DNA of 64,000 nucleotides from Tubulanus polymorphus. Lineage: Eukaryota > Animalia > Nemertea. A model generated the notes under the pieces. That model saw nothing but the letters and a program-made list of their open reading frames with translations, did no database searches and was not told the DNA's origin. Made by a program: the position numbers and the translations under genes. Numbering within the stretch: position 1 is the stretch's first letter; each line of letters starts with the position of its first letter. This document shows, one piece after another, positions 2,418 through 41,113 of this stretch. The stretch is taken from positions 5,430,914 to 5,494,913 of the forward strand of contig NC_134034.1 in the NCBI RefSeq assembly GCF_964204645.1. Direction: 5' to 3'.

Positions 2418-4287
2418 CATTACCTACAACTCTGAACTGATACGAGCCCCCGTGAGTTTTTGAGGTGTAGAACTGTAGAGTTGTCAGTCCTAAAAGCCAC
2501 GTTCTCTCTATCATCATGTAGGCTATGTCGCACCGCCATCTATCCACCAGTCCCTTTTGGATTGCTAAGTATCGCCAGGTACCATCTATAGACAATTTAC
2601 GGTAGCTACCACCCGCTATAGTCCCCTATTCTTAAATCGCACTGATCTCGGTTCATCTCGGTAAATTACGTCATCTTCTTGGTAATAAGGAGGACCCTAA
2701 ACAAGAGCGTTTTAGCGCAGCGACGAAAAATGTAAAACATGTTAGCTATTTGGTGATTGCCAAAATGTCCTGGAACAAGAGCCCCATGGGGCTTGACGCG
2801 GCAGCTTTCAGATGTTTTAAAGCTCTACTACCACAGTACAGTTTGTAGTGTAGTAGTAGTTACTTAGGTTTAGGATAGGTATGTTCATGTCCGCGCGGGG
2901 CGCCACTATCGATTGTGATGACCATTATTGATTAGGAAAAGTGTGATGCGCGTTTTTACATCGCGTAGTAAAATCATTCATAAAACCTGTCTATCAATGC
3001 AAATGAGCTAAAATCTTTTGGAATCAACCAATAAGATCGATCTTTATCACTTGGGGGTTGGTTTAGAGTATAAATCCGCATTTTAGTCGAAGAAAATAGA
3101 AATCGAAATATACCCTTTTTCAAGAGCAAAATTCGTCAGCTAACGACCCGTGATAAGCGACGAATCATCAGGAATCGGAAGGTTTAGGATCTTAAAATTC
3201 AAATACTGAAGACCGCATGATTTTATTTCGTGTCGGGGCTGAGTTTCTTTTGCGCGCGGATCGCCACTACGCTCCCGTCGGTAAAGCGGCTGTTGAAAGA
3301 GGGAGGCGTCTAATGGGATAAATTGAGGCTTGTGACGGGCAAAAATAGAGGCGCGTGATGGGACAATGAGGCTTTTCCAAAAGCAGCAAAATTGAAATAT
3401 ATATAAAAAATTGTTGAAATTTAGCTCAAAACAAATGGATTATTATTTAGTTATTATAAGTAGTATCATTACTATTGCTTGGTTTATGTTTCTAAACTGA
3501 TTGGTTTTATTATGATATCATGAATATATTTCAAATTTCAGCGTTTTGAGCTAGGCCAAGCCTAATTTTCTGCTTTTCTTAACTAAAATTCATTTAGCAA
3601 ATAATATATAAAATTGGTATATTTAAATCAATTTGCAATAGGAGCCTATGGCTATAGAACTAACTGACAGGCCTTGATAATCATGTTTATTCATTTCAAA
3701 AATCATGTAGTGAAAAAAATAATTTCTCAATATTTCTCAATATTTCACATTTTTTCTTGCCGTTACCATGGAAACCTAATAATAATAATCTATATAATAA
3801 TAGAAATTCCTAGATAAACTTAGGGCAAACATAAACTATTGATAACTAGTTATTCTATCCCCTTTCTACATCATAACTTTTGATCTAACATCGATATTTT
3901 CATTATTTTACCATTTTTCGGCTGGTTTCCATGGAAACCATAGGCATTTGGAATCAGATAAAAATTTTGGGTCTGTCAACTGTCACCTGAAAGTGCTATG
4001 AGTGTATTGCTCTTTAAATTTCTAGTCTATCTCTTTTTGTTTAAGAGATATTGAAGTTTGTTTACATGAAATATTGCCTTCTTAGATCACAGTTTTTGTG
4101 TATTGAAACATGAAGACACTTTTCGCTCAAATTTTCAAACTTCAATTTGCGATATCTCGAAAACTACTGAAGATAATTCAAAAATTTTAAAAGCATATTG
4201 TTATTTGAACCCTCCCCATTCCAACAAGCTTTCTTTCAGTAAGATTGGAGCTATTTGAATTTTTTATGGATATAGCTACTTAGGACC

Positions 4288-5998
4288 TAGTTAGTTACCT
4301 AATCGTTGGTGGTAAGCTTTTTATAATCAGATGGGCTTATACCAACGTTAGGGATGACAAGGACCAAAACACGGTTGAAAAAAGTAACACTTCAAAAATA
4401 TATTTTCTATTCACTTCAGTCCACAGTTAATGGCTTAATTCACAAACTAACACAGGTACCTTTCGAAATAATCCAATTTTATGTATGTTTCGAGTGATTA
4501 ATTATCATTATTTTGAGAAATTAATTAATTTCTCCACAAATTTCGCCATTGGCCGCCATTTCTCTGTATTGCACATGTGGCATGATAAGACAAGGGGACC
4601 TACAAGGATTTATATAAAACTTTCAAGACGAAACAACAATTTTTATTTTTGATGGTTTTCCAACTTATATTTCAAATCTTCGTGTTTTCCATAATATATA
4701 ATCCAATAATAAATTCTGGTAAAAGAAAAATGTGATTAAGTGTTGATTTCTTAGTTTTTTTTCAATTTCGTTTCGCTTCGTTAGTTTGTGCTGTTGTCCT
4801 GGCCTCAGTCCACACTCACAGGTGCCAGCACCTCCAGTAATTTTCAAAATGGCAGCTGTTGACTCCATGGATATTTACTCTCACTTTAAGGCCGATTTGC
4901 ACATGGATTAAGATCGTCAGGTGAGGTGTTATAGGTATCAGATAGTCAGTAACCTGTCTGTGGTTTAGTTTCACGATCGGATATTTTCACAAACCACAGT
5001 CAGGAATGGGAAGGTCATTTTTGTATGAAATCTTCGTCAGCCAATTTGACTGACGAGTAATTTGCCTGGCATTTCATTGTCTCTTAAGATATCCGTCAAA
5101 TTTTTGTTGTAATCGACACACAACAGATTCGTAGTTTGTCTGATACCTATAATACCTCACCTGACGATCTTAATCCATGTGCAAATCGGCCGTAAAGTGA
5201 GAGTAAATTTCCGTAGAGTCAACAGCTGCCATTTTGAAAATTACTGGAGGTGCTGGCACCTGTGGACTGAGGCCAGGACAACAGCACAAACTAACGAAGC
5301 GAAACGACGAAATTGAAAAATATTAAGAAATCAACACTTATTCACATTTTTCTTTTACCAGAATTTATTATTTCATAATTTATAATGGAAAACACGAAGA
5401 TTTGAAATATAGGTTGGAAAACCATCAAAAATAAAAATTGTCGTTTCGTCTTGAAAGTTTTATCTAAATCCTTGTAGGTCCCCTTGTCTTATCATGCCAC
5501 ATGTGCAATACAGAGAAATGGCGGCCAATGGCGAAATTTGTAAGGAAATTAATTAATTTCTCAAAATAATGTTGATTAATCACTCGAAACATACATAGAC
5601 TTGGATTATTTCGAAAGCTACCTGTGTTAGTTTGTGAATTAAGCCATTAATTGTGGACTGAAGTGGATAGAAAGTATATTTTTGAAATGTTACTTTTTTC
5701 AACCGTGTTTTGGTCCTTGTCATCCCTAACGTTGGTATAAGCCCATCCGATTATAAAAAGCTTACCACCAACGATTAGGTAACTAACTAGGTATCAGACA
5801 AACTAAGAATCTGTTTTGCGTCGATTACAACAAAAATTAGACGGATATCTTAAGAGACAATGAAATGCCAGGCAAATTACTCGTCAGTCAAATTGGCTGA
5901 CGAAGATTTCATACAAAAATGACCTTCCCATTCCTGACTGTGGTTTGTGAAAATATCCGATCGTGAAACCAAACCACAGACAGGTTACTGACTGACTA
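4288..5998. mobile_element. Non-autonomous Academ-like TIR element (outer copy)
   Basis: Ends TAGTTAGTTACC ... GGTTACTGACT(GACT)A; interrupted by an inverted copy of itself; own TSD not recognisable. Confidence 0.65.
4943..5789 (-). mobile_element. Inner inverted copy of the same element (AcademH-like: TAG ends, 9-bp TSD)
   Basis: Ends TAGTCAGTAACC ... GGTAACTAACTA; exact 9-bp TSD GGTATCAGA at 4934-4942 and 5790-5798. Confidence 0.8.
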
Positions 5999-6540
5999 CT
6001 GACTGTACACGCCCGCCCCTTATTCTCAATTGTCGGGCTACAATTGTCAGCTGTGACGATTCCATGTGACTGAACTAAAGCGTATATATTTATTACTCAA
6101 CACGATAAACACTCACTTGACGATGATATGCAGAGATACCAAAGATGCCGGTGAATTTCTGAGGCAATCACGTAATAAGCGTGCGCCGGTGAATCTGGCT
6201 CACAGCAAAAGAGAGCATGTTGACTCTGCGCATCGCACGTAGCGCCGCAAATACAAAGTCACTTTATTGATATATAGCTTAACGAGATGATTGCGCGCCG
6301 GGTCCCGAACTCTGATTCACACGAATAGTTTTCTCGCAGACTACGTGATGACATCTTCACCCTGACATCTTCACCCGTCAAGGGATTCGAACCCACTACG
6401 CTAAAGCCGTTCCCCAAACCCCTTGACCTCATGAGTCGTTTTGAATGTGGTTGTCTCATGAATCGCAGAACTTGGAGTCGTTTGCCGACCGGAATCAGGT
6501 CGGGCTAATAACGTGACCAGCTTAAAACGACATTAGACTT

Positions 6541-6731
6541 GAGACGAGAAGATACACAATATCCGTGTAAGATGATAACGAGAGAAATTCCACAATAAAT
6601 TCAGCCAAAACGAGAAACTGAATAGAAGAGTATACTTGCGCAACGTTAAAGACTACATCATCAGGGTACTGAGCCAACAGGAGAATATTACAAGATATTT
6701 ATACCAAAACAATAGAAACAGAGTGAGTGAT
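6541..6731 (-). mobile_element. Penelope-like remnant, left part (tail plus inverted pseudo-LTR), split by Polinton A
   Basis: 6579-6634 is an inverted repeat of 24657-24712; 13-bp TSD CGACATTAGACTT at 6528-6540 and 24714-24726; tail motif ACACAATATCCGTGT matches the Penelope at 59805. Confidence 0.7.
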
Positions 6732-7254
6732 AGTAATAGGGATAATAGGCTTTCATACCAAAGGTCGAAGGGTCGAGCTCGTAAAAAAATGAAAATAATA
6801 ATTTACAGTTGAATTAGTCGCGCACACTCCTAATTCAACTGTAAATTATTATTATTTTCATTTTTACTCACCCGCCCCTTCAACCTTTGATATGAAAGCC
6901 TATTATCCCTATTACTCTTAAAATATTCACATATATATGAATAACATTTAAATCATTGAACTTCTAAAATCAATTTTAATAAAAAATATAGTATTAAAAT
7001 GGAAGCAAATAAATACTACTGCCCAACATGTAAGATAAGTATAGATAAATCCCAAAAAGCAAGACACAATAAAACTATAACACATTTAGAGAATAAATTG
7101 AAATTAGAATATGAAGATGATATATTAGAAACTAAATTAGAAGAATTAAAGAATGAAAAAGAAACATATAAATGTGATACATGTAATCAATCATTCAGTG
7201 ATAAAAGATATTATAAAGAACATTTAAAATCTATAAGTCATATTAGAAATAAGA
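6732..7254 (+). repeat. Left TIR of A (523 bp), with terminal 185-bp palindrome at 6732-6916
   Basis: Reverse complement of 23926-24450 apart from a 2-nt homopolymer difference and about one substitution. Confidence 0.97.
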
Positions 7255-7262
7255 GACCTTAG
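6999..7262 (+). CDS. TIR-duplicated N-terminus of pPolB (two C2H2/matrin-like zinc fingers), truncated
   Basis: First 85 aa identical to the ORF starting at 24181; CPTC..H..H and CDTC..H..H. Confidence 0.6.
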   Translation: MEANKYYCPTCKISIDKSQKARHNKTITHLENKLKLEYEDDILETKLEELKNEKETYKCDTCNQSFSDKRYYKEHLKSISHIRNKRP

Positions 7263-8289
7263 TCGTTTTACAAACAACTACAATCATATAGTACATTTGT
7301 TACATGTTATTATAAGAGAGTGCTTCATTTGAATATTGATCAATCAAACAGGTGTTGCACAACGTTGTTGTTATATAATAAGCACGCACGCAGTACATAC
7401 AACACACACAAGCCAGTTAGCCGGTATTGAATTACTGCGTTTTCATTAGTTGCTGAAAGCGAGGTTTATTTAAATTAGCTCGGCCGTGACGATAGGAGGA
7501 TAGTCATCATTCTATCGTGATTAAAAGGAATATTTCAATGTTTTTACGGTAAGTTTTAGCAAAATTGCCCTATCCTCGACCTATAGAGTTTTCAGGGGAT
7601 AAGCATCCCATTATTGAAAGGCGCCACGGGACGCTTATCCCCCGTCATTTCTACTTACACCCCCGGCGACCCACATCAACCGAGATCTCCTTCAATGATT
7701 GGTAGAAATCACATTATATTAAAGGCGCCTAATGTAATTTCTACCAACCTCGAAATTCGAAACCGAAGGAGAAACCCGGAGAGTGGACGAAGGTGCATTT
7801 TCAAAATGCCTCTGCTGGCCAGAGCTACTCCAGTGGTTGAATGAATTACCTTATATACTTAGCTAAAACACCTAAGTAAATGTTGTTGGTGTTAAAAAAA
7901 TATGTGAAATTTGAAATTATAAATTATTCCGAATGAAAAGAATGTAAGAATGAAAACTGATAAATGAATTATGTATTTTTAACTTCATTATGATATAATT
8001 TTTAATCAAATTAGTAATCAATTACTATATTAATTGATTAACAAATTCAAATATTCATTTTAGCACTCAGTGCTCCCATCTTTCAATTTAAGAAAAAACT
8101 AATAATAAGAAACGACTGTAATACAATATTCAAATAAAAACAAAATAAATTAATAAAAATAATGATTATCTAGAATCCGAAATGACTTATCTGGACAATT
8201 TAATTGCTCCACATAGATAGACAAAAGTAGTGAGATATTCAATTATTTTTTTTCATACTCATCACCACAAGTAATTTTTTTCCTAATAA

Positions 8290-8964
8290 ATGGAACCAGA
8301 ACAACCACAAATTATCAATATTACAAATAACACTGGTGTTATAAACATATATTACAAAAAGTGTTCTAAATGTGAATTAGATAAATCATTAACAGAATTT
8401 AGTAAGCGTAAGATTAGCAAAGATGGTTTTCAATATTACTGTAAAACTTGCATTAAACTATATACCAAACAATACCGAGAAGATAATAGAGAATCTTATA
8501 ATGATTATATGACAGAATATATGAGAGAAAGATATCAAACAGATCTTAATTTTAGATTAAAACAATGTTTACGGTCTAGATTAACACAATTATTCAACAA
8601 AGAAACACATTCAGAAACATTAACTAATTTGTTGGGTTGTTCAGATGAATTTCTCAAATCATGGATTATATTTCAATTCGATGATAAAATGAATATAGAT
8701 AATTATGGGGATTATTACCATATTGATCACGTGTTACCAATATCTAAATTTAACATGAACGATGAATACAATAAAAAACTTATTTGGAATTGGAAAAATT
8801 TAAGACCTTTAGAAAAGAAAGAAAATCAAATCAAATCTAATAAAATAGATTTACAGTTATATTTGAATCAACTGGAAAAAGTAAAAAAATTTATTGATTG
8901 GTGGAATAGTAACCCACAGAATGAACAATATGTTGAGGAATTTGATATCAAGGATCCGAAATGA
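8290..8964 (+). CDS. HNH-family endonuclease with N-terminal CxxC zinc ribbon (giant-virus-like)
   Basis: KKCSKC...CKTC; YHIDHVLP...WNWKNLRPL..EN..KSN. Confidence 0.8.
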   Translation: MEPEQPQIINITNNTGVINIYYKKCSKCELDKSLTEFSKRKISKDGFQYYCKTCIKLYTKQYREDNRESYNDYMTEYMRERYQTDLNFRLKQCLRSRLTQLFNKETHSETLTNLLGCSDEFLKSWIIFQFDDKMNIDNYGDYYHIDHVLPISKFNMNDEYNKKLIWNWKNLRPLEKKENQIKSNKIDLQLYLNQLEKVKKFIDWWNSNPQNEQYVEEFDIKDPK

Positions 8965-9265
8965 CTTATCTGGACAGTTATAGTTACTGCTCCTAATAGA
9001 TAAACAAAAGTAGTGAGATATCAAATAGAATTCAAATAAAATATATTAAAAAAACAATAACTTCAACTGCTAGTGAATTCTGTTATATTTTTAATATTTT
9101 CTTTTCAAAAAGAGAATACTTTATATTTTGAATAGATTCAAATAGAAATTCTTTAAATTCAAATAGCTAGTATCAGTAGTCAATACTAGAATTCTTTAGC
9201 TTTAACTAGCTAGTATCATTTTATAATACTTATAATATTTTTCTTATTAAATTTCTCTAATATAA

Positions 9266-9868
9266 ATGTCAAAGAAATCTAATAAGAATAGTATTGATAT
9301 TGAAAAGACATTAGATGATTTAGGTATTAGTGATAATAAAGATACAGTTGCAACTAATTGTGCTCAAGTTAATAACAATATAGATTATGAATACTACTTA
9401 TATTGTAAGCATCATCTTGAATTATTAATTGCTGGCGGGAAATCTAAGGACTTCTTAGGAAAAATAATAACTTTTCAAGAACTAGACTCTATGAAACCCG
9501 ATAAAGTAATCAAATATTTTAAGATTTATGAAGAGGCAAGATTAGCTAGAATAAATGATTCTATTTCAGATGGTATTGTCAAATGTTATTCAAAATTATG
9601 TAACCAGTTAATACCAATTGATGATGAAAATAAATTATATAATGATTTGAAAAATGACTATTTAGTTATGACTGAATTACAAAAATGGGTTGGATATGCT
9701 TCATTTCAATTAGGATCGGTTATGACATTAATTTCTACTGGAGTTATAACATTTTCGAACATCAAACCTATGGAATATAAATCAGGTAAGAACGAAACAG
9801 ATGTACTACAACCAAACGTCGAAACAGAAAATGAATCAAAACAAAAATTAACTAAAATAAATGAGTGA
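9266..9868 (+). CDS. Conserved hypothetical protein with a hydrophobic segment near the C-terminus
   Basis: TAAATG start; homologue in copy C (starting at 57494, minus strand). Confidence 0.8.
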   Translation: MSKKSNKNSIDIEKTLDDLGISDNKDTVATNCAQVNNNIDYEYYLYCKHHLELLIAGGKSKDFLGKIITFQELDSMKPDKVIKYFKIYEEARLARINDSISDGIVKCYSKLCNQLIPIDDENKLYNDLKNDYLVMTELQKWVGYASFQLGSVMTLISTGVITFSNIKPMEYKSGKNETDVLQPNVETENESKQKLTKINE

Positions 9869-10247
9869 TGGAGTTAAGAAAAAGGCTAGATCAGAGAAAC
9901 AAATTAAATGGGTAAGAGAATTAGGTAAAAGATCATCAGAATTAAAAAAAGCTAAGAAAAAGAAATTAACTGATATAAATGAATCACCTGATGATGCCGT
10001 ACGGCACCCACACGGTGGTATTGATTCAAATGATAATCCATCTAATTCTTCTAATGCTGGAAGTAATTATAAATTATATATTACAATTGGATTAGTAACA
10101 GTTATTATATTATCCGGTGTAATATATAAATCAAAATTCAAATCTGATGATAAAGATGATTCCAATGATAACAAACATATTATACCAGAAAATAAGTCAA
10201 ATCATAAATCAAATGAAAATAAATCTAAAATATTATTAATGGATTAA
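9861..10247 (+). CDS. Hypothetical single-pass membrane protein with basic N-terminus
   Basis: LYITIGLVTVIILSGVIY segment; homologue at 53368-53723. Confidence 0.8.
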   Translation: MSDGVKKKARSEKQIKWVRELGKRSSELKKAKKKKLTDINESPDDAVRHPHGGIDSNDNPSNSSNAGSNYKLYITIGLVTVIILSGVIYKSKFKSDDKDDSNDNKHIIPENKSNHKSNENKSKILLMD

Positions 10248-10250
10248 AAT

Positions 10251-11351
10251 ATGATGAAAAAAGAACAATATTTAAGAGATTTATATTATAACCCAGAAAG
10301 TGAAGTATCATATTCTAACGTTTCGGAATTATGGGATAAAATTAAATCTGATAAAGAAAAAATAAAATATAGTGAATTAAAATCATGGTTACAAAATCAA
10401 CCCACATATCAAATTCATAAAAAGATGGATAAAAAATATTTAACAAGAAAAGTAATGGTTTCATATATTGACCAACAATGGCAAGCTGATTTAATTGACA
10501 TGAAAAACTTAGAAGAATATAACAAAGGATATTTTTGGATACTAAATGTTATAGATATATTCAGTAGATACGCATGGAGTATCCCGATTAAAAATAAAAC
10601 TGGTATAGAAGTTACAAATTCTTTCAAATTAATATTTAAAGAAGCTATCCCAGATAAAATACAATTTGATGAAGGTAAAGAATTTTATAACAAACATTTT
10701 AAAAAACTATTAACTGATAACGATGTAGAATATTTTTCAACACATTCAGATAAAAAAGCATCCGTTATAGAAAGATTTAATAAAACATTGAAAACTAGAA
10801 TGTGGAAATATTTCACCGCTAATGAAACATATAAATATATCGATGAGTCTATAAATATATTAGATGATTTAGTTAAAGGTTATAATAATTCTAAACATAG
10901 TTCTATAAATATGAAACCTATACAAGCTAGAAAAGAAGAAAATTCAGAAATAGTTTGGAATAATTTATATGGTGCGTTTGTTACACATGATTTTGGAGAA
11001 CCTAAATTTAAAATTGGACAACATGTTAGAATTTCTAAATATAGAAAAACATTTTATAAAGGTTATACCCCTAATTTTACTGAAGAAATATTTAAAATTA
11101 AAAAGATAATATTAACTAAACCATTTGTTTATAAATTGTTTGATTTAAAAGATGAAGAAATATTAGGTTATTTTTATGAACAAGAATTATCATTAGTACC
11201 AAACCCAGATGAAATAGAATACAAAATAGAAAAGGTATTGAAAACAAAAACTCTTAAAGGAAAAAAGTATTCTTTGGTGAAATATAAAGGGTATGATGAT
11301 AAATTTAATGAATGGATTTTATCTAGTAAAATTAAAAGAATAAATGAATAA
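10251..11351 (+). CDS. Retroviral-like (rve) integrase with C-terminal chromodomain
   Basis: WQADLIDM, IQFDEGKEF and VIERFNKT supply the DDE residues; YKIEKVL..YSLVKYKGY..FNEW chromodomain. Confidence 0.95.
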   Translation: MMKKEQYLRDLYYNPESEVSYSNVSELWDKIKSDKEKIKYSELKSWLQNQPTYQIHKKMDKKYLTRKVMVSYIDQQWQADLIDMKNLEEYNKGYFWILNVIDIFSRYAWSIPIKNKTGIEVTNSFKLIFKEAIPDKIQFDEGKEFYNKHFKKLLTDNDVEYFSTHSDKKASVIERFNKTLKTRMWKYFTANETYKYIDESINILDDLVKGYNNSKHSSINMKPIQARKEENSEIVWNNLYGAFVTHDFGEPKFKIGQHVRISKYRKTFYKGYTPNFTEEIFKIKKIILTKPFVYKLFDLKDEEILGYFYEQELSLVPNPDEIEYKIEKVLKTKTLKGKKYSLVKYKGYDDKFNEWILSSKIKRINE

Positions 11352-11955
11352 AGATTTATTTATATTTGAACCACATAATATGTTAGTTACTGGAGTTACA
11401 AATTGTGGTAAAACACACTTCATATTATATTTATTAGAAACTATTTATAAGAATCATTTTGATAATATAATATTATTCTGTCCTACTTATGAAATGAATG
11501 AAACATATAATAGAGATATAGTTAAGATAAAAAAGTTTATTATATTAGATCCTAAAACAGTAAAAGAAAATTTAGATAATTGTATTAAAATTGCATTAGA
11601 TATTTATAAAGGATCAAATACATTATTTATTATCGATGATTGCGCAAATTTACATGATTCAAAAGTTAGAGAAAGTGAGTTATGTTATTTAGCTTTCTCT
11701 GGTAGACATTTTGGGATAACAACATGGGTTTTAAATCAGAAATATAATTCAATTGTGAAAGACTTTAGAGAGAATATAAGATTTCTAGTTTTATTCTACA
11801 ACAAAGATAGAAAATCTATGCAACAATCATTAGAAGAAAATCAAATTATACCTACTGAATTACATGATGAATATATGAATAAATTAAAGAATAATAAAGG
11901 TTCAAAATTATTAATGAGATTACAATTTCCATATGAATATAAATTTATAAAATAA
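11344..11955 (+). CDS. A32/FtsK-like DNA packaging ATPase
   Basis: Walker A GVTNCGKT, Walker B FIIDD, GRH motif, LNQ. Confidence 0.93.
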   Translation: MNKDLFIFEPHNMLVTGVTNCGKTHFILYLLETIYKNHFDNIILFCPTYEMNETYNRDIVKIKKFIILDPKTVKENLDNCIKIALDIYKGSNTLFIIDDCANLHDSKVRESELCYLAFSGRHFGITTWVLNQKYNSIVKDFRENIRFLVLFYNKDRKSMQQSLEENQIIPTELHDEYMNKLKNNKGSKLLMRLQFPYEYKFIK

Positions 11956-11975
11956 CTATTTGTATACCAATGTAT

Positions 11976-12068
11976 TAGATACCCTAATACCTGATACCCT
12001 AATACCTGATACCCTAATACCTGTTACCCTATTAGATACCTTAAATAATTTAAACCCCCTTTTTTTAT
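11976..12068. terminator. Convergent-gene junction: 15-bp GATACCCTAATACCT repeats then CCCCC-T8
   Basis: Lies between converging ORFs; similar motif at ~43175-43226 and, inverted, at ~51430-51700. Confidence 0.45.
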
Positions 12069-12090
12069 TTACTATCATTTTATACAATTT

Positions 12091-13143
12091 TTAACCTTTA
12101 TTATTTTTGAGTGTTAGATAATCAATTTCTGAATCAATTTCTGAATCACTTTCACTATCAGATGACCCTAACACCATATTTAAATGCTCTACCGAATCTA
12201 CATTAACATCTTTATAATTTTTTTTCACCTTTTTCACCTTTTTCGCCTTTTTTTCCTTTTTTATCTTTTTTACCTCATCATCAATAGTTGTTTCATTTTT
12301 TAACTTATTCTTCCAATCAAATTTATTATTATTTTCTACTTTAAGTTTTATAGAATCTTTATTATCAATATGTTTAACTGTAACTATATCATCATGTGGG
12401 CGTATGACATCATTTTCATTATCATCTTTATTAGTGTTTGCTCCTAATATTTCATTTACAGTGTTTGATCCTAATATTTCATTAGCATTGGTTAAATCTA
12501 ATTCATCTTTATTAGGTGTTGCTAATAATAAATCTTCATACATTTTTTCACCATTTACTTTTTTATTTGAAACAAACTTTGTAACATATCTAAATGGGTG
12601 TTCTATAAATTCTTTTTTACCAACACGTTCTATAACATTAGTAATATGTGAATTTGTATTCATATGTTTATTCCAATTTGATGGAGCGTTTGAAAATTCA
12701 CCATTACAATAACCACAATAATTTCTATTTTCACTAACATCTAATATTATTGCATTATTAGATGTAGAAGGTATTATGTTATTAGATGTAGAAGGTATTA
12801 CGTTATTAGATGTAGAAGGTATTATGTTATTAGATGTAGAAGGTATTACGTTATTAGATGTAGAAGGTATTATGTTATTAGATGTAGAAGGTATTATATT
12901 ATTTGATGTAGAAGGTATTATATTATTTGATGTAGAAGGTATTTCATTATTATCAATTACATTACTTAAATTATCAACAACTTCACTTTTATTATTATCG
13001 ATTTCTATTAGTTTAGTTTTATAATTTTTAAAAATAGGATCAAATATCAAAGCTATATTACAAGGTATTACATAATATAAACCATCATTATTTTCATGTG
13101 TATCGATGTATGGAATATGTTTATATACTTTACCTCCTTCCAT
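12091..13143 (-). CDS. Hypothetical protein with ~8 IIPSTSNN repeats, a zinc finger and a Lys-rich/acidic tail
   Basis: 24-bp tandem repeat at ~12750-12945; CGYC..HMNTNSH; TAAATG start. Confidence 0.8.
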   Translation of the reverse strand: MEGGKVYKHIPYIDTHENNDGLYYVIPCNIALIFDPIFKNYKTKLIEIDNNKSEVVDNLSNVIDNNEIPSTSNNIIPSTSNNIIPSTSNNIIPSTSNNVIPSTSNNIIPSTSNNVIPSTSNNIIPSTSNNAIILDVSENRNYCGYCNGEFSNAPSNWNKHMNTNSHITNVIERVGKKEFIEHPFRYVTKFVSNKKVNGEKMYEDLLLATPNKDELDLTNANEILGSNTVNEILGANTNKDDNENDVIRPHDDIVTVKHIDNKDSIKLKVENNNKFDWKNKLKNETTIDDEVKKIKKEKKAKKVKKVKKNYKDVNVDSVEHLNMVLGSSDSESDSEIDSEIDYLTLKNNKG

Positions 13144-13175
13144 TTATTATATACATTTTTATTAAAGTTAAAATT

Positions 13176-14423
13176 TTAATACATAACACTATCTAATTGT
13201 GAATTTACAATATTTAATTGCGCGTCAGATATAATATAAATGTGCATTTTAAAATTTTTGATTCCTTTATTCTTTTTCATGAATAATTGTATTCCATCTT
13301 TTGTATTTTGTAGTTTTTTTCCAGAACCATGTAATGAATTATCTTCAGTTGTTCTAAAATCTAACCATAATGCATATTTATTACCGGTATAATAATCAAT
13401 TTGATTAATGTTACAATTTTCAAATGATTTTACTTTTTCATTCATAAAATGTTTTTTAATTTCTACCCATTGATCTATCATTCTCATTCCTTGACAAAAT
13501 ATTTTATTCGCTATTCCTTCGATAGTTATTTCTACTTTTGTTATTTCAGGATTATAATAATTGTCAACATTTATTGCGCCATTAGTATACGTTCCAATGG
13601 TAAAAAATATTAATATACCTTTAATAGATCTTCTAGGAAAGTTAATATTCTCATTAATTATTTCATCATTTGCATTAATAGTTACAGTTTTAAATTTATC
13701 AATATAATCATATAATAATGAAAACCCTTGATTGTATTTAGTTTGAATTATATTTGAAATATTTTCATCAGTTACTGTATCATATTCTAAACATATATTC
13801 GATAATTTATAACTCATATCTTTAACAACGCTAGATAATACAATTTCATTTACAGGAGCAAATGTTATCTCAAATATAATATCTTCTTGAATTGCGTATT
13901 TATATAAAGGTGCATTATTATTTATCAATTCAAAGTCTAATGGAATTTTATATTTGCTTCCATATATACTTTTTATCAATTTATCTACATCATTTGTTAA
14001 TATTGCGCTATTAGCTTCTGATCTTAATTTATTTTGGTTTTCCGATTGGATGCCTTGAAATATCATATTATTTCTATTTTCTTTAGTTAACCATAAATCT
14101 TTATAATGCATAAATAAATTATAATCATCTAATGAGAAAACTGTTTCAGGACCAATCTTTATTGTTAACTTTTTAATCAAATATCTCCCAACATTATCAA
14201 CAACATAATTATTATTATTACCGATTACTTTTATATCAGCTGATAAATAAATACTGTTTGGAACATAAAAAGTATTTTGTGTTAATCTAGGAATTCTAAC
14301 GTATAAAGTTTCATCGGGATTAATATTTGAAGGGTTATGAGTAATTATATGATGTGATCTTTCTGCTTTAATAGCGTTAGATATTCTAGAAATCTTCGAA
14401 GGACTTATATAAATCCCACTCAT
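13176..14423 (-). CDS. Major capsid protein (double jelly-roll, hexon-like)
   Basis: 415 aa, beta-rich pattern (NPSNI..LYVRIP, LIKKLTIKIG, YKIPL), size and context typical of Polinton MCP. Confidence 0.8.
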   Translation of the reverse strand: MSGIYISPSKISRISNAIKAERSHHIITHNPSNINPDETLYVRIPRLTQNTFYVPNSIYLSADIKVIGNNNNYVVDNVGRYLIKKLTIKIGPETVFSLDDYNLFMHYKDLWLTKENRNNMIFQGIQSENQNKLRSEANSAILTNDVDKLIKSIYGSKYKIPLDFELINNNAPLYKYAIQEDIIFEITFAPVNEIVLSSVVKDMSYKLSNICLEYDTVTDENISNIIQTKYNQGFSLLYDYIDKFKTVTINANDEIINENINFPRRSIKGILIFFTIGTYTNGAINVDNYYNPEITKVEITIEGIANKIFCQGMRMIDQWVEIKKHFMNEKVKSFENCNINQIDYYTGNKYALWLDFRTTEDNSLHGSGKKLQNTKDGIQLFMKKNKGIKNFKMHIYIISDAQLNIVNSQLDSVMY

Positions 14424-14451
14424 TTATTTAACAAAAAAAATTAATTATTTA

Positions 14452-14530
14452 TTTTTGATATTTTTTGATATCATGGTTTACTTGATATTTTTTGATATCA
14501 TGGTTTACTTGATATTTTTTGATATCATAT
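14452..14530. repeat. 27-bp tandem triplication at the end of the 533-aa gene
   Basis: TTGATATTTTTTGATATCATGGTTTAC, about 3 copies. Confidence 0.85.
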
Positions 14531-16106
14531 TTACTAACCCAAAAATAATAGCACTTACAACTGTAATTAAAAATAAAATAATATGTTCAGCAGCAAAGTT
14601 AATAATGTTTCCTGCAGATTTCAATATAAAACCAACAATTGATGCAATAACTCCTGGTAAAGCTGCAGCAGATTTCTTTGATAGTTCCCATAAATATTTT
14701 GCTAATTTCTTTAAACCATCTTTAACTTTATCTTGTATAGAATTATTGCCTGGAGGTTTATCTGGTTTATTAGGAGTGGGAGTAGAAGTAGATTTTAAAG
14801 CATTTGATATAGCTAAACCTATTGTTGTAAATAACATAGTTACAGCTGTTAGAATTGAAAGAATTGTTATTCCTTCTAATTTAAATAATAACTTTATTCT
14901 GTCTTTTAGTGATATTTCAGAATTTGGTTTAATCAACAAATCTTTAAAAATAACTTTTAATCTATTTATATTATAATCATATGATTTTAATAATAATTTA
15001 ATTTCTTCTTTTTGTAATTCTATGTTATATTCTAAATCATCAATTTCTTTTTCTAAATATGCATTTCTTTTTTTAAATTCAATTTCTTCAATAACTTTAT
15101 TATCTCTATCTAATTTTAGTTGTTCTATTTCTTTATTTTTATCAGTTCTATCTTTTTCCAAATACATAATTTTTTGATCTCTTATACTTTTATTATGTGC
15201 AATTTTATCAGCTGATTCTTGCGTACCTTTAATTTCTCTACGTGCTTGTTCAGGAAATGATTCTAATTCATCATCAGTTAAATCAAGTAATCCTTTTTCT
15301 AGTAAATATTCCAGTCGATTTATTCCACCACTATTCATTTCTTCTTCTGAATCACTTAATCTATTAATTTGTTTTTCTAATTGTAATTGTAATTGTAATT
15401 GACTTGAATCATTATCAATTGGTTGAGTGTCTCTTCTCGATGTTTCGGGTGTTGAAGATCTTAATTTATCTAATCGATTTCTATTCTCTTCCATTTCTGG
15501 TTCTAAATTATCATAGATTTTCTCAAATAACTCATTAATTCTTTGTTTAAATAATTTTTTAAAGTTATCTATTTCTTCTTTTGTTACATCTTCTAGTTTA
15601 TTATTATAAATAATTTTCTTAATTCTATCTGGTTCTAACTTAAGCAAAGTTGATTCTGCCAATATTTTGTTTTGATTTTTATAAGAGATATTAATATAAA
15701 ATTCACCATTTAAATTATCACCATCCAAATAATAATAATATTCACCATCTAAATATTTTAAATCTTTTACTAAAAGTCTAGCGCCTCTATCATTTATATT
15801 ATAACCAGATTCTTCAAATAAAGGTTTAAAATCATAAATAAATTCATTATATTCTAATTCTTGTCTTGCTAAATCTGGATTTTCATTTTCAGTATTTATT
15901 CTCTTTCTATTTGTTCTATCAAATTCATCTGTTGATGGGATTTTAGAACCACTATCTGCTAAATTAGAATTATATGTTGATTCATCATCATTATCAATAT
16001 TAGTTTCATTAAGATTAGCGCCTGCATCATTATAATCATCATCAATATATCCTTCATTATTATTTCCCATTTCTTTCATTTCATAATCTACTCCACCTTT
16101 TGCCAT
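14505..16106 (-). CDS. Large acidic/coiled-coil protein with C-terminal hydrophobic helices (putative virion membrane protein)
   Basis: ITILSILTAVTMLFTTIGLAI, LPGVIASIVGFIL and IILFLITVVSAIIFGLV segments; C-terminus conserved in copy C. Confidence 0.8.
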   Translation of the reverse strand: MAKGGVDYEMKEMGNNNEGYIDDDYNDAGANLNETNIDNDDESTYNSNLADSGSKIPSTDEFDRTNRKRINTENENPDLARQELEYNEFIYDFKPLFEESGYNINDRGARLLVKDLKYLDGEYYYYLDGDNLNGEFYINISYKNQNKILAESTLLKLEPDRIKKIIYNNKLEDVTKEEIDNFKKLFKQRINELFEKIYDNLEPEMEENRNRLDKLRSSTPETSRRDTQPIDNDSSQLQLQLQLEKQINRLSDSEEEMNSGGINRLEYLLEKGLLDLTDDELESFPEQARREIKGTQESADKIAHNKSIRDQKIMYLEKDRTDKNKEIEQLKLDRDNKVIEEIEFKKRNAYLEKEIDDLEYNIELQKEEIKLLLKSYDYNINRLKVIFKDLLIKPNSEISLKDRIKLLFKLEGITILSILTAVTMLFTTIGLAISNALKSTSTPTPNKPDKPPGNNSIQDKVKDGLKKLAKYLWELSKKSAAALPGVIASIVGFILKSAGNIINFAAEHIILFLITVVSAIIFGLVNMISKNIK

Positions 16107-16122
16107 TTATATAATAAAAAAA

Positions 16123-17271
16123 TTAAAATTTAAAATATAATATTCCTCCGATTACAATTCCTATACAAGTTATAGCTAATTTAGTATTTTCATGTGATTT
16201 ATTATCATTATCAGTTTTAATTATATCATGTTGAATTTTAACAGTTCTATTATTTTCTGATGTATTGTAATCTTTTATTTTAGAATCATTAACCAATTTA
16301 TTATTCTTAGTTTTAGTTTCTGTTGATTGAATGTGTTTTTTATTTTTTTCACCTTCCATTAATTTTGGAGCAGTAATAATCTTTTTATTTATATCATTTA
16401 ATCCAAATGAATTATTTATTGTTGCAGTTTTAATTAGATTATTATAACCAATTATATTTCCCATCTTTAATACTAAATCATTAGAAATAATTAATAGATT
16501 AGGGCCTATACAATAATTAAGTCTTACATGAGATTTATCTAAATAATTTTGATATCTTATAATGTTTTCTGGAATCGATCTATTTTTATCATTATGAATT
16601 GAATCTTCAAATAAAACTTTGAATTGTTTTTGTGTATCGAATGATGTATTCAAATTTCCAATTATCGGTGATCTTGTTTCAACTTGTGATCCTAGAATAC
16701 AAATCAAATAAGTTCTAATAGATTGATTTATTCTTTCTATACCTGATTTAGTAAAACCTTCACTATTTTCTAAAATAAAATAAACCCAACCATTATTGTT
16801 TTCTTGTTTTAAATTATCATAAAATTTCGGTAATTTATTGAAATTTAATGTTTCTAAATCCTTTGTTTCTATTTTACCATAACCTAATTTTTTATTATAG
16901 ATATTATAAAAACTATTAGATGGTATGGGAAGTGCACAATATTCTGCAATCTTTCTAGGGCAAGGAAGTGATCTTATTGTTCCAATTTTTATTCTAAAAT
17001 CAGAATTATTTATATCTATATTAAATTCATTGCAAATTTTATAAAACTTTGATAAATTAATATTATTATCCAATTCTTTAAAATATCTAGATCCTGGTAA
17101 AGCGCACTCTAATTCATTTAATATTATTCTGATTTGAAAGTATGTATGAAATCTAAATAAACTTTGAATTAGTTTATATTTAGAATTATTCAAATGATCA
17201 TTCCAACTAATTCCACATCCTGTTGTTGCACAATAAACAGCAAAATTTAATTGATTCTGCCAATACTTCAT
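16123..17271 (-). CDS. Conserved hypothetical protein with C-terminal transmembrane anchor
   Basis: YWQNQLNFAVYCATTG start present in all three copies; LAITCIGIVIGGILYF. Confidence 0.8.
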   Translation of the reverse strand: MKYWQNQLNFAVYCATTGCGISWNDHLNNSKYKLIQSLFRFHTYFQIRIILNELECALPGSRYFKELDNNINLSKFYKICNEFNIDINNSDFRIKIGTIRSLPCPRKIAEYCALPIPSNSFYNIYNKKLGYGKIETKDLETLNFNKLPKFYDNLKQENNNGWVYFILENSEGFTKSGIERINQSIRTYLICILGSQVETRSPIIGNLNTSFDTQKQFKVLFEDSIHNDKNRSIPENIIRYQNYLDKSHVRLNYCIGPNLLIISNDLVLKMGNIIGYNNLIKTATINNSFGLNDINKKIITAPKLMEGEKNKKHIQSTETKTKNNKLVNDSKIKDYNTSENNRTVKIQHDIIKTDNDNKSHENTKLAITCIGIVIGGILYFKF

Positions 17272-17286
17272 ATTAGATTTTAATAA

Positions 17287-17511
17287 TCATTGTTTTTCAT
17301 CTTTCAATTTTTTAAAATTAATCAAATATACATGAAATATATTTTCCATCTTTGCATTAAAATTATTACTTTCAGTAACATAAATATATAAATCAATTAA
17401 TGAATCTAAAACTTCATTTCTATATGTAATATCTTCATTAAAATCTATTGCTGGAATATTATATTTAATTGATTTATTATATTGGAAAGCTTTTGGAAAA
17501 CTATCTGCCAT
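17287..17511 (-). CDS. Small hypothetical protein
   Basis: TAAATG start; decayed homologues in B and C. Confidence 0.65.
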   Translation of the reverse strand: MADSFPKAFQYNKSIKYNIPAIDFNEDITYRNEVLDSLIDLYIYVTESNNFNAKMENIFHVYLINFKKLKDEKQ

Positions 17512-17527
17512 TTATATAATTAAAAAA

Positions 17528-17962
17528 TTAATAATTAACTAATTCTTTTAATAATTTATCTTGTTCTTCAACTGTTATATGACCATTTAAACTTATTATA
17601 TAATCTAGTGTGTTCTTTAATTTATTAATTTCTTTTATATTAGTTTTAATTTTTTCTTTATTACTTTTTATATTTAATTTTGAACTTATACCAGTTAAAA
17701 CACTTGAACTTAATCCTAATACACCAATTGATATAGCTAAAGGTGTTAATGGACTGAATATTGCTAGAAATGTTATTACAGAACTAATTGTAACCGAACC
17801 ACTGATAATCAAATAATATATAATTTTACTTTTTAAATATTTTTTCTTTTTTATCTTTAAGTCACTTTCAAATTCTAATATTTGTTTTTCTAAATATGTT
17901 TTTAATTTAGTTTTATTTATATCATGAGGAATATTATCAATACTATCAACTTTATCTTCCAT
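17528..17962 (-). CDS. Two-TM hypothetical protein flanked by coiled coils
   Basis: Two hydrophobic helices; homologues at 42193 and 46674. Confidence 0.8.
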   Translation of the reverse strand: MEDKVDSIDNIPHDINKTKLKTYLEKQILEFESDLKIKKKKYLKSKIIYYLIISGSVTISSVITFLAIFSPLTPLAISIGVLGLSSSVLTGISSKLNIKSNKEKIKTNIKEINKLKNTLDYIISLNGHITVEEQDKLLKELVNY

Positions 17963-17981
17963 TTATTTAGAATAAAAATTA

Positions 17982-18404
17982 CTAATTAGTAAACTTATAA
18001 GCAACAAATATAACAATAACTGTTCCACCTAAAATCCATATTATTTCATATTTCTGTTGTTCTTTACTTGGGGTATAATAATCTGATAATTTAGGTTTGT
18101 ATAGATGTAATTTTTCTTTATTTGTTACCGCGTTATATAAACTCATTGCATCATCAACTGATTGAAAATCTCTATGTGAAATCTTCTGATCATATAATTC
18201 TTTATTGATGTAATCCATATAGTTTTGTCTCTTTTCTCTATATTCTTCTGCATCTTTATTGTATTTCTCTAACGCTAAATTATGTCTTCTTTGTTCTCCT
18301 AATGAACTATTTTTATCAATATGTTTAAATAAATAACCACCACCTGTAAATGCTAAAGCGTTAACAATTGCTGATCCTATAATAGTTATAATTGCAGAAG
18401 CCAT
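17982..18404 (-). CDS. Hypothetical protein with hydrophobic N-terminus and C-terminal TM helix
   Basis: MASAIITIIGSAIVNALAFTGGG...IIWILGGTVIVIFVAY; homologues in B and C. Confidence 0.8.
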   Translation of the reverse strand: MASAIITIIGSAIVNALAFTGGGYLFKHIDKNSSLGEQRRHNLALEKYNKDAEEYREKRQNYMDYINKELYDQKISHRDFQSVDDAMSLYNAVTNKEKLHLYKPKLSDYYTPSKEQQKYEIIWILGGTVIVIFVAYKFTN

Positions 18405-18428
18405 TTATTTAGCAAAAAAATTATGCAT

Positions 18429-18650
18429 TTATATGGGAGGAATATATTTTTGTTTTTCCAAATAATCAATTGTTAAATTAGATAAAGTAACTGCTAATGT
18501 TAATTTTAAAATATCATTTATATCAAATCTATCAACATTAACACTTCCCATTTTGAATACTTTTTTTAATACCATTGAATAACCAACAGTTCCAACTGAT
18601 AGTAATGCGCCATTATATAATCCAGTTATTATCCACTTATTATCACTCAT
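18429..18650 (-). CDS. Small hydrophobic protein
   Basis: TAAATG start; homologue at ~41456-41720. Confidence 0.7.
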   Translation of the reverse strand: MSDNKWIITGLYNGALLSVGTVGYSMVLKKVFKMGSVNVDRFDINDILKLTLAVTLSNLTIDYLEKQKYIPPI

Positions 18651-18992
18651 TTATTTATCAAAAAAATTACTATCATCAAAATATTTAGTTAACTTATTTA
18701 TGATTAATTCAACATTTATTTTATTACTAGTTTTATGATTATCATATATTTTGGTTAATATGTTTTTAATATCATCAATAATTCCATCTTCATTTAATTC
18801 ATAATATTCTAAAGGTGATTTAATTAAATCAATTACTTTTTCTATATTATACTTTTCTTTATCAATCATTGATGCATTGTTAAATGATTTACTTTTTATA
18901 TCAGTAATTACATCATTTAGTTTAATTCTCATTTCTTTACCATGTTTAAAATCAAACCCAAAACATATACTCGGTCCAACAGTTATATTCAT
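18651..18992 (-). CDS. Hypothetical protein
   Basis: TAAATG start; homologue at 41114. Confidence 0.75.
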   Translation of the reverse strand: MNITVGPSICFGFDFKHGKEMRIKLNDVITDIKSKSFNNASMIDKEKYNIEKVIDLIKSPLEYYELNEDGIIDDIKNILTKIYDNHKTSNKINVELIINKLTKYFDDSNFFDK

Positions 18993-19009
18993 TTATATAA
19001 TGAAAAAAA

Positions 19010-19762
19010 TTACTCTCTACATCTTATAACTAATTCATAAATTACAGGGAAATTATTTAAATCAATTAAGTATCCATTATGATTTCTAATTTCTAATCTA
19101 AAATTATTAAATTTAGGAATGCAAGGTTTGAAATCACATTCTGTTAAATTATAATTTATTTGCGTTCCAAATTCTTTAACATTCTTCAATGGTAAAATGT
19201 TTAGTAAACCAGAATTACAAGTTATATCTTTAGTTGCTTCGAATGTTTTTGTAGGATCGATTAAATTGCAATAAATATAAAAATGTGTGTAAGGTATTAA
19301 GTTTGGTGTAGCATCAACATTTGAATAAAGTTTATCTGGTGTAATTCCTAACAGTTTAGCTATAGGTTTTTTAACTAAAAATTGATATTTCTCACTACGA
19401 GTTAACCTAATCCTTATTTTATCAGAACTATCACTTTTTAAAAATCTAATACTAAACCCGGAATTACTACCTAATTTGTGCCAGGTTTTTCTATTAATTT
19501 CTTGTGCTAATGTATCTAAATTATATAACCCTAGTTTTAAATATATATGATACCTTTTATTTTTTTCCTGAACTATAAACAATTTATGATCAATAGTTTT
19601 ATCCGTTATATTATAAAAAGAATTACATAAACTTATATTAACTAATTTTAAATCTACACAATTCTTAAATTCTCTATCTAATTGAACTAGTAAATTATGA
19701 GATTTATAATTTGTAAGCCTTCTAGAATCTACAAATATTCTGTATTCTTTTAATTCTACCAT
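19010..19762 (-). CDS. Minor capsid protein (penton-like single jelly-roll)
   Basis: IFVDS, NSFYNI, FYIYCNLI, LLNILP and FRLEIRN..G.LIDLNN patterns typical of Polinton pentons. Confidence 0.8.
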   Translation of the reverse strand: MVELKEYRIFVDSRRLTNYKSHNLLVQLDREFKNCVDLKLVNISLCNSFYNITDKTIDHKLFIVQEKNKRYHIYLKLGLYNLDTLAQEINRKTWHKLGSNSGFSIRFLKSDSSDKIRIRLTRSEKYQFLVKKPIAKLLGITPDKLYSNVDATPNLIPYTHFYIYCNLIDPTKTFEATKDITCNSGLLNILPLKNVKEFGTQINYNLTECDFKPCIPKFNNFRLEIRNHNGYLIDLNNFPVIYELVIRCRE

Positions 19763-19779
19763 TTATTTTACATATTTTC

Positions 19780-20121
19780 TTATTCGAAATCTATTTCATG
19801 GTGCCCTTTTTCATTCTTACCTTTGTATACGAAATAGAAATCTCCAGAACATAATTCTTCTAAATCTTCACTTGATAATCTATGAAATCTATCTGGTAAA
19901 TAAGTTCTGAATTTATATGTATTTCCTTTTAATCCTTCATATTCTAAATGAATTACTAATTTATCTCCATATTTATTAGTAATTGTAACAATATTTGTAA
20001 TTAAATATTTCTTATGAATTGTTAACTCAGTTAGTTTTTTAAATTTATAATCTACAGATTTGACGCTTGAAGTATCTTTAATTCTATCTAAGAATTCACT
20101 GTGTACTTGTTTACTCTCCAT
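19780..20121 (-). CDS. Small conserved protein, possibly OB-fold ssDNA-binding
   Basis: FKKLTEL..KYLI...NKYG.KLVIHL..TYLPDRF pattern; fold is an inference; homologue at 39972. Confidence 0.6.
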   Translation of the reverse strand: MESKQVHSEFLDRIKDTSSVKSVDYKFKKLTELTIHKKYLITNIVTITNKYGDKLVIHLEYEGLKGNTYKFRTYLPDRFHRLSSEDLEELCSGDFYFVYKGKNEKGHHEIDFE

Positions 20122-20149
20122 TTATTATACAAATTTTTATTGAAATTGA

Positions 20150-24181: not shown

Positions 24182-24450
24182 TTTAATACTATATTTTTTA
24201 TTAAAATTGATTTTAGAAGTTCAATGATTTAAATGTTATTCATATATATGTGAATATTTTAAGAGTAATAGGGATAATAGGCTTTCATATCAAAGGTTGA
24301 AGGGGCGAGTGAGTAAAAAAATGAAAATAATAATAATTTACAGTTGAATTAGGAGTGTGCGCGACTAATTCAACTGTAAATTATTATTTTCATTTTTTTA
24401 CGAGCTCGACCCTTCGACCTTTGGTATGAAAGCCTATTATCCCTATTACT
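23926..24450 (-). repeat. Right TIR of A (525 bp), with terminal palindrome at ~24264-24450
   Basis: Reverse complement of 6732-7254. Confidence 0.97.
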
Positions 24451-24456
24451 AGTGAT

Positions 24457-37134: not shown

Positions 37135-37239
37135 TCACTTCGCCTGACCAAAAACTATACTAAAAATGGTCCGAGTAAGTAGATCGACCCGACAAACAAT
37201 CTATCAGTGCCGCCATTTTGAATTTGATCCCATTTTGAA

Positions 37240-40325: not shown

Positions 40326-40339
40326 AATATGTAAAATAA

Positions 40340-41096: not shown

Positions 41097-41113
41097 TTTT
41101 TTTCACTATATAA

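Follow-up and report, generated by a model that had tools for sequence, protein, structure and literature searches.

What could a long self-complementary sequence be doing at the very ends of a Polinton? The question is raised by element A, a Polinton/Maverick at 6732-24450 of a 64,000-nt stretch of the genome of the nemertean Tubulanus polymorphus (NC_134034.1, positions 5,430,914 to 5,494,913), referred to below as the window. Classical Polintons have 5′-AG...CT-3′ termini, a 6-bp target site duplication (TSD), terminal inverted repeats (TIRs) of hundreds of bp, a protein-priming DNA polymerase (pPolB), an rve integrase, and an A32 ATPase. In the standard descriptions these TIRs are simple inverted repeats, and the "racket" model has one TIR pair with the other, far away in the element. 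The descriptions are not known to include a self-complementary unit at each end, such as element A has. To our knowledge, neither the replication of Polintons/Mavericks nor their exit from the chromosome has ever been demonstrated, and the textbook model is a drawing. The palindrome of element A lies at the exact element boundary and recurs among relatives, its arms change in concert while keeping a fixed asymmetry, and its 3′-ending strand folds better than the opposite one.

The terminal palindrome of element A

Element A is a Polinton/Maverick by its defining features, namely pPolB, an rve integrase, AG...CT TIRs, and a 6-bp TSD. Its G+C content is about 22-25%, against about 35-40% in the surrounding DNA. 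The TSD is AGTGAT, found at 6726-6731 and again at 24451-24456, and no other register gives equal flanks. The termini read AGT...ACT and so belong to the 5′-AG...CT-3′ class. The left TIR (6732-7254, plus strand, about 523 bp) and the right TIR (23926-24450, minus strand, about 525 bp) differ by one substitution and one 2-nt indel.

The left end, 6732-6916 (AGTAATAGGGATAATAGGCTTTCATA...TATGAAAGCCTATTATCCCTATTACT), is an imperfect palindrome of 185 nt. The outer arm (6732-6817) starts with the true terminus AGTAAT and comprises a 26-nt tip (6732-6757), the motif ATACC, and a mid-block of two 8-mers (6760-6777). A G+C-rich loop of 12 nt, TCGCGCACACTC, occupies 6818-6829. The inner arm (6830-6916) is an inward-facing copy of the terminus, with its tip at 6891-6916 on the minus strand. 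The arms are 86 and 87 nt long; aligned with gaps, they match at 77 positions, differ at 7, and leave 5 gap columns, and the ungapped segments are 56 nt at 88% and 35 nt at 86%. The right palindrome, 24264-24450, has 187 nt and consists of an inner arm (24264-24352), a loop that is the reverse complement of the left one (24353-24364), and an outer arm (24365-24450) ending in ATTACT at the element boundary, all on plus-strand coordinates like the left parts. Its differences from the left palindrome, one substitution and a 2-nt indel, are confined to the inner arm.

As single-stranded DNA, the left palindrome folds at -63.2 kcal/mol, compared with -11.95 ± 2.79 kcal/mol in 200 shuffles (z -18.4), none of which equals it. 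The terminal 26-mer occurs at exactly four sites in the window (6732 plus, 6891 minus, 24264 plus, 24425 minus), where the chance expectation is 0.00, and the tips of the two arms are identical at 26/26 positions. The starts of the outer arms coincide exactly with the TSD boundary at both ends. The terminal palindrome is thus a real, non-chance part of the Polinton terminus. The sequence-only reading from which this work started, which described a 185-bp palindrome with arms of about 86 bp and a 12-nt loop, a mirror copy at about 24264-24450, and a second, inward-facing AGT terminus at each end, is confirmed on all these points by the alignment, the fold, and the four 26-mer sites. The folding that it called for gives a strong hairpin.

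Palindromic ends in related elements

Terminal palindromes are present in six elements (A, B, L001, Z, Z2, and L032) that represent at least three to four lineages. A, L001, Z, Z2, and L032 all encode pPolB. The more distant relatives come from a scan of prokaryote-labelled assemblies containing eukaryotic contamination, which yielded 46 loci with polymerases at 27-43% identity. The sequence-only reading had proposed scanning the TIRs of family copies and of Repbase Polintons for self-complementarity; among the relatives covered here, the palindrome is kept in B, L001, Z, Z2, and probably L032.

Copy B is a diverged relative within the window. Its left palindrome (39760-39912, plus strand) has 153 nt and folds at -54.0 kcal/mol (z -14.9), and its tip is unlike that of A, yet the same in both B arms. 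L001 is a 6-kb contig with a polymerase 74% identical to that of A and a 257-nt palindrome at 190-446, which begins AGTAATGG. Z and Z2 are two complete, distantly related Polintons, both from one other assembly. Z (19.4 kb), inserted in (ATT)n, is bounded by TIRs that span at least 226 bp and are 99% identical; on either side the palindrome takes up their outer 159 nt. Z2 (15.1 kb) has the TSD TAGGAA and TIRs of about 221 bp, with a palindrome over the outer 174 nt on each side. In L032, a 131-nt unit, AGTAGTTAGGG...CCCTAACTACT, is located 150 nt upstream of an intact 1248-aa polymerase gene. The unit belongs to the one end available and sits at a shift in composition. It has complementary 29-nt tips that match at 27/29 positions around a 72-nt centre that is hardly palindromic, and it is probably a terminal palindrome.

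The right end of copy B (46286-46369, plus strand) retains the TIR interior, the inner arm (about 46286-46356), and the whole loop (about 46357-46367), while the outer arm is gone. It is joined through a GAGAA microhomology (about 46364-46369) to the interior of another copy. The loop is where a folded end or a cruciform would be cut. The left loop of B is inverted relative to its right loop and to A, and the arm types are not swapped.

Evolution of the arms and strand bias

The tips of about 26 nt and the A+T-rich central stems are unrelated in sequence between A, B, and L001, yet the two arms agree within each element. The same is true of the central stems when Z and Z2 are included: their sequences are unrelated in all five elements, and they are paired in each. 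Between A and B, the two arms share the same change at 13 columns, and the outer and the inner arm have each changed alone at 11 more. Between A and L001, 22 changed alike, 7 in the outer arm only, 8 in the inner arm only, and 5 differently in both. In both comparisons the alike changes are concentrated in the tip and the central stem. Arm identity ranges from 67/76 columns with one mismatch in Z to 96/124 in L001.

The mid-block consists of two tandem 8-mers of the form (A/G)GG(T/G)(C/T)GA, and it has arm-specific bases that are common to A and B (outer GGTCGA..GGTCGAG, inner GGTTGA..GGGCGAG). This indicates that the palindrome is older than the split of A and B, and that the arms have not simply been homogenised. 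The first difference between the arms, 20-29 nt from the end, is an outer C against an inner T in five of the five AGTA-type elements, and four of these have outer ATACC against inner ATATC or ATACT. The motif AGTA..AGGGA / ATACC is common across lineages. The outer and inner arm types hold the same places at the left and right ends of A, at the left and right ends of B, and in L001. The two ends of Z are alike in orientation, and so are those of Z2.

The mismatches are also unevenly distributed between the strands. In six elements, counted at one end each, transition mismatches give 19 G·T wobbles in the 3′-ending strand and 3 in the 5′-ending strand. The ratios are 4:0 at the left end of A, 3:1 in B, 9:2 in L001, 1:0 at the left end of Z, 1:0 at the left end of Z2, and 1:0 in L032. 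With DNA parameters, the folding energy is lower for the 3′-ending strand at 9/9 ends, by 0.1-9.4 kcal/mol.

Reads across the left end

About 12% of a sequencing run that carries the same species label was read, and its raw reads were aligned to 6300-8100 of the window only. Directly before 6732, 1412 reads have unlike flanks (consensus agreement 0.34), and position 6732 is therefore a mobile end at many sites. The summed depth per bin is about 16 in the left-most bin (6300-6360), about 2660 in the outer arm, about 940 in the loop, about 1320 in the inner arm, about 1100-1630 in the TIR interior, and about 260-620 in the unique interior. The inner arm has about the same depth as the TIR interior, so solo palindrome units are not in excess. 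A further subfamily has the outer 56 nt or so in common with A and departs from it after 6788 (789 reads). The joints 6788>6861 (69 reads) and 6798>6861 (52 reads) represent shorter, centre-deleted palindromes or polymerase skipping. A joint of opposite strands at 6788/6865 (21 reads) was considered as a snap-back and rejected, as it is an arm variant with the inner-type AAT count.

The aligned reads contain no pile-up of molecule starts or ends, no strand-switch joints beyond those explained by arm variants, and, among the variants listed, no high-share variant at the diagnostic sites of the outer arm. The free hairpin-ended or snap-back molecules that had been envisaged from the sequence are thus not borne out by these reads.

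Proposed fold-back of the 3′ end

The favoured reading, to which we give a probability of roughly 0.4, is that a duplex terminal origin is rebuilt when the single-stranded 3′ end folds back, for use in protein-primed initiation and tip repair. It is favoured because self-complementarity survives sequence turnover, most strictly at the tip, and because of the fixed asymmetry and the 3′-strand bias. An end of the element would become single-stranded during protein-primed strand-displacement replication. By folding on itself, the 3′-ending strand would then restore the terminal origin as a blunt duplex, a "panhandle" confined to one end, where the polymerase with its priming domain could initiate. 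The inner copy of the terminus may serve as a template for restoring an eroded tip. There are precedents for the two ideas in the still unproven panhandle of adenovirus and PRD1 and in the repair of Streptomyces telomeres. The outer C and inner T would mark the true end for an end-recognising protein, and would still pair as G·T in the 3′ strand.

Several points weigh against fold-back of the 3′ end. The TIRs of about 523 bp already permit a classical panhandle, so that a local one is not strictly needed, and the reads lack the pile-up of molecule ends. The counts behind the strand bias are low, and the test was conceived once the data had been seen; three of the elements (A, B, and L001) are related to one another, the energy difference between the strands of L001 is only 0.1 kcal/mol, and a strand-specific mutation bias could mimic the G·T bias. 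The weakly paired centre of L032 fits paired binding sites equally well. L010 has an intact 1297-aa polymerase (32% identity) with plain 41-nt TIRs and no palindrome. A clear fold-back lies upstream of the polymerase gene in 4 of the 17 loci with at least 300 nt there, the termini being unlocated in the other 13. This count leaves out L024 (a run of N) and L049 ((TA)n), and the palindrome count leaves out the tandem 61-bp palindromic units of L004 and the repeats of L065, whose status as termini is not shown. Copy A itself is probably not autonomous, because its polymerase frame is interrupted.

A wider version of the fold-back reading is speculative and, on balance, doubtful. It holds that an intra-end origin is used throughout a branch of pPolB-encoding Polintons, where the folded 3′ end would both initiate replication and rewrite the tip, and the C/T difference would tell the real end from the decoy. 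If true, virus-like elements of eukaryotes would have a telomere design not described before, one that converges on the telomeres of Streptomyces, and the concerted turnover of the tips would be accounted for. With a conserved, strand-biased fold-back at the exact terminus, several DNA substrates become well defined: the 3′ end in its folded form, the tips of both arms, and the C/T mark.

Alternative explanations

The palindrome may instead be a pair of protein-binding sites that never forms a hairpin. Two inverted recognition copies for the integrase, or for the zinc-finger or priming domain, would be bound on duplex DNA by a dimer or tetramer, and the palindromy would be a by-product of this layout. 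The tips are the best-preserved part (26/26 in A, 27/29 in L032), the AGTA..AGGGA / ATACC motif is shared across lineages, the two tandem 8-mers of the mid-block resemble iterons, the 72-nt centre of L032 is hardly palindromic, and L001 has a third, direct copy of the tip motif before its polymerase gene. The explanation is nevertheless unlikely. The central stems of A, B, L001, Z, and Z2 are unrelated yet paired, and a bias of G·T pairs and folding energy towards one strand is meaningless for duplex binding.

Parvovirus telomeres are terminal palindromes of 120-400 nt with conserved mismatches, a paired 3′-OH, an HUH nickase, and flip and flop forms. Element A is similar in its long terminal palindrome with conserved mismatches and in a 3′ hairpin with a paired end. 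In contrast, no HUH gene is found, the orientation of the arms is fixed, a protein-priming polymerase is present, and only the left loop of B is inverted. Self-priming of the parvovirus type, as had been suggested for excised strands, would use the 3′ hairpin as a primer; nicking and unfolding of the turn-around end would follow, a task that may fall to the polymerase's EndoVII/HNH-like domain. The 3′-ending strand folds best and has its last base paired, the stem has conserved mismatches, and the loop is inverted at one end of B. The EndoVII/HNH-like insert is itself real. Its motif, CxxC..DHDH..G..RG..H..CN, is invariant in 7/7 aligned polymerases, and PF02945 is precomputed for 11 of 45 homologues. 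Against the cut-off of 23.6 bits for PF02945, Z reaches 26.5 and L032 24.0, and element A stays below it at 23.2.

Self-priming is rather improbable all the same, because it predicts flip and flop forms, whereas the arms hold a fixed orientation. Transfer of the hairpin would turn the entire palindrome around, but the arm types keep their places in A, B, and L001, both ends of Z and both ends of Z2 share an orientation, and the reads have no high-share variant at the outer-arm diagnostic sites among the variants listed. Pfam finds no HUH nickase (Rep/NS1) among 17 open reading frames (ORFs) of element A at E ≤ 0.01, and no separate HNH gene. The element also retains its protein-priming polymerase. 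Palindromic ends do not go strictly with the EndoVII/HNH domain, since Z2 has palindromic ends and no EndoVII match in its polymerase (Pfam), whereas L010 has a weak match (20.4 bits) and plain repeats. The HNH or EndoVII-like activity suggested earlier as a possible resolving enzyme is thus not strictly tied to the palindrome.

The palindrome could also be a functionless by-product, either of fold-back copying errors at the ends or as a source of hairpin RNA for small-RNA silencing by the host. Arm identity does range from young-looking in Z to decayed in L001, the reads contain the centre-deleted variants (69 + 52 reads), and Rfam gives scores like those of miRNA precursors that are below threshold (37.1 bits for the minus strand and 22.8 bits for the plus strand, gathering score 85). 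This origin is improbable, as the palindrome predates the split of A and B, tips and stems remain paired after complete sequence turnover, and the outer-C/inner-T site is kept in unrelated lineages. A known RNA family was considered separately and rejected, the Rfam scores being generic hairpin scores only.

Launch of the element by cruciform resolution has little probability. A junction nuclease would cut the base of a cruciform at the boundary between host and element, as at a poxvirus concatemer junction, and the folded ends would then be filled in. In its favour are a cruciform base that falls on the TSD boundary, an EndoVII-type domain in most of these polymerases, the breakage of one B end at its loop, and the existence of a solo Z-type palindrome that has no TSD. 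This support is purely geometric. The reads give no sign of excision or ends, Z2 lacks the EndoVII match, and arms with 10-13% mismatch extrude poorly.

Insertion of an independent palindromic miniature inverted-repeat transposable element (MITE) at both ends can be dismissed with near certainty, since the 185-bp unit, although it starts with AGT and ends with ACT like a minimal element, has no TSD of its own (its flanks are AGTGAT and CTTAAA), stands at the very boundary within the TSD of the element, is replaced by different palindromes at the same place in other lineages, and has an inner-arm read depth (about 1320) not above that of the TIR interior (about 1100-1630). The two outcomes that the sequence-only reading had named as fatal, loss of the palindrome from most family copies and such an insertion, were both looked for; the family copies keep the palindrome, and it is not an inserted MITE.

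Comparison with other terminal structures

A literature search that did not cover the founding Polinton papers found no description of such ends in polymerase-bearing Polintons. Nothing was found that joins Polinton and cruciform, and a search for Polinton with endonuclease VII gave nothing related by title or abstract.

The closest likeness is found in the flagellate Halocafeteria seosinensis. According to a preprint, its endogenous virophages and one Polinton-like virus (PLV) have palindromes of about 52 nt in the TIRs beside the TSDs, these go preferentially with replication genes other than pPolB, and a hairpin-priming model is proposed (bioRxiv 10.64898/2026.07.28.741278). The two systems share a palindrome inside the TIR that adjoins the TSD (A, Z2) and an rve integrase. 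They differ in that the palindromes described here have 131-257 nt, against about 52 nt, and belong to pPolB-encoding elements. The arm asymmetry and the strand bias are observed here, and no mention of either was found in the passages covered from the preprint. The observation of terminal palindromes in virophages and PLVs is thereby extended to polymerase-bearing Polintons. Besides bringing in classical pPolB Polintons of several lineages, the present analysis adds the arms' concerted turnover, the C/T mark, and the 3′-strand bias.

In the adenovirus and PRD1 systems, the panhandle is the standard yet unproven model for displaced strands (PMC11886824). The likeness lies in protein-primed replication, in which the displaced strand is thought to regain a duplex origin through inverted terminal sequences (PMC11886824). 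There the opposite ends pair, whereas here each end could pair with itself.

In Streptomyces, fold-back palindromes in 3′ overhangs are reported to serve terminal-protein priming, and truncated ends to be repaired by extension on the fold-back (PMC5449611). The resemblance is in the mode of working only, with a terminal protein on the 5′ end and a fold-back of the 3′ strand. The Streptomyces telomeres are bacterial, have several small packed palindromes and an internal origin, and use Tpg/Tap proteins unrelated to pPolB, whereas a single long palindrome is present per end here. No Tpg/Tap-like match is given by Pfam for the ORFs of element A.

The ends also resemble those of poxviruses in having an incompletely paired terminal hairpin whose duplex palindrome is the form cut by a junction nuclease (PMC11296320). 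Unlike poxviruses, the nuclease domain is EndoVII/HNH-like and lies within the polymerase, rather than being a RuvC-like resolvase, and there is no sign of covalently closed ends. Annotators should reckon with self-complementarity in the outer 130-260 bp of such TIRs, which has consequences for assembly and for the calling of TIRs and MITEs.

Gene content and surroundings of element A

In the left TIR, the palindrome is followed by a promoter-like leader (6917-6998) and then by the first 85 or so polymerase codons in a second copy, as the zinc-finger ORF 6999-7262. The polymerase gene itself begins within the right TIR, so that its first 85 or so codons (the zinc fingers) are internal to the TIR. 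The N-terminal pPolB ORF (21380-24181, minus strand, 933 aa) comprises C2H2 zinc fingers and the EndoVII/HNH-like insert at aa 587-635. The C-terminal part (20150-21181, minus strand, 343 aa) includes YFDTDS and is 83% identical to residues 1023-1365 of P0001. Together the two ORFs match proteins of 1319-1365 aa at 69-83% identity. The strings DANNLYG and YFDTDS, which we take to be polymerase motifs, are visible in the alignment, and PF03175 is carried by 8 of the 45 homologues, among the more distant ones. A PDB profile search with the polymerase alignment returned zinc-finger matches only. Searches of IMG/VR gave no relative for the polymerase and no match for the 18-nt tip. The reading frame is broken between 21181 and 21380. 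This split occurs despite near-identical TIRs and represents a young defective copy or a short intron.

The rve integrase with a C-terminal chromodomain is encoded at 10251-11351 on the plus strand (PF00665 36.0 bits, cut-off 32.6; Chromo 23.0 bits, below its cut-off of 25.1), and the A32-like packaging ATPase at 11344-11955 on the plus strand (Pfam 43.6 bits, cut-off 22.8). Pfam gives no capsid or protease match for the other ORFs of element A; a structure-based search was not made. A 350-aa ORF at 12091-13143 includes nine 24-nt tandem repeats (12700-12987), which encode a repetitive protein segment.

The conserved A+T-rich leader (..TCTAAAATCAATTTTAATAAAAAAT..) follows the palindrome at 6917-6998 and 39913-39972 of the window and at 447-570 of L001, and occurs again at L001:966-1007. 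It is likely a promoter, and it precedes the first gene, which is the polymerase in A and a 113-aa ORF in B and L001. The gene order beside the end thus differs among these relatives. In L001, the third, direct copy of the tip motif (AGTAATGGTATAAACAT) lies at 949-965, directly upstream of the polymerase leader and 500 nt inside the palindrome, and may be a former terminus or an extra binding site.

A host inverted repeat encloses element A, with 42-nt arms at 6578-6619 and 24672-24713 that are 93% complementary. It is high-copy in the reads, with a depth of about 2500 at 6544-6604. A solo palindrome likewise lies at a distance of 8 bp from Z2. These two cases suggest that fold-back DNA may be a preferred target of Polintons.

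Other copies and features of the window

Copy B (39760-53880) is a chimera in which a 6.6-kb piece meets, at the hairpin loop, a 7.5-kb fragment from inside another copy. The 6.6-kb piece has its own TIRs of about 210 bp, comprising the palindrome, the leader, and the start of the 113-aa ORF, and the 7.5-kb fragment is truncated near 53880 and has no terminus. A third copy, C (58846-64000), matches parts of A at 82-95% identity and is rearranged: one segment is inverted, and another has been lost from its interior. The copy extends past the window edge, and no terminus is visible.

Among the distant relatives, Z (L061, G001:C67) has an internal tandem duplication of about 4.7 kb that includes the integrase gene (7957-12202 and 12715-16945). 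L004:3357-3990 has about ten tandem palindromic units of about 61 bp directly upstream of a degraded polymerase gene (40% identity). The solo Z-type palindrome at L068:169-282 (ACACACATATATAATG...) has 114 nt, lacks a TSD of its own and any adjoining TIR interior, and may be a footprint or a remnant.

The window also contains an intact-looking non-long terminal repeat (non-LTR) retrotransposon ORF at 25888-29493 (1202 aa) with an endonuclease and a reverse transcriptase (RVT_1 121.9 bits), which indicates that the host is a eukaryote bearing long interspersed nuclear elements. Host satellite arrays with units of 8, 17, 48, and 98 nt are found at 30792-31281, 33995-34772, 37230-38091, and 4285-5792. 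The arrays at 34126-34457 and 37262-37593 are mutually inverted, and 4285-4761 and 5316-5792 form an inverted pair of 477 nt at 95% identity.

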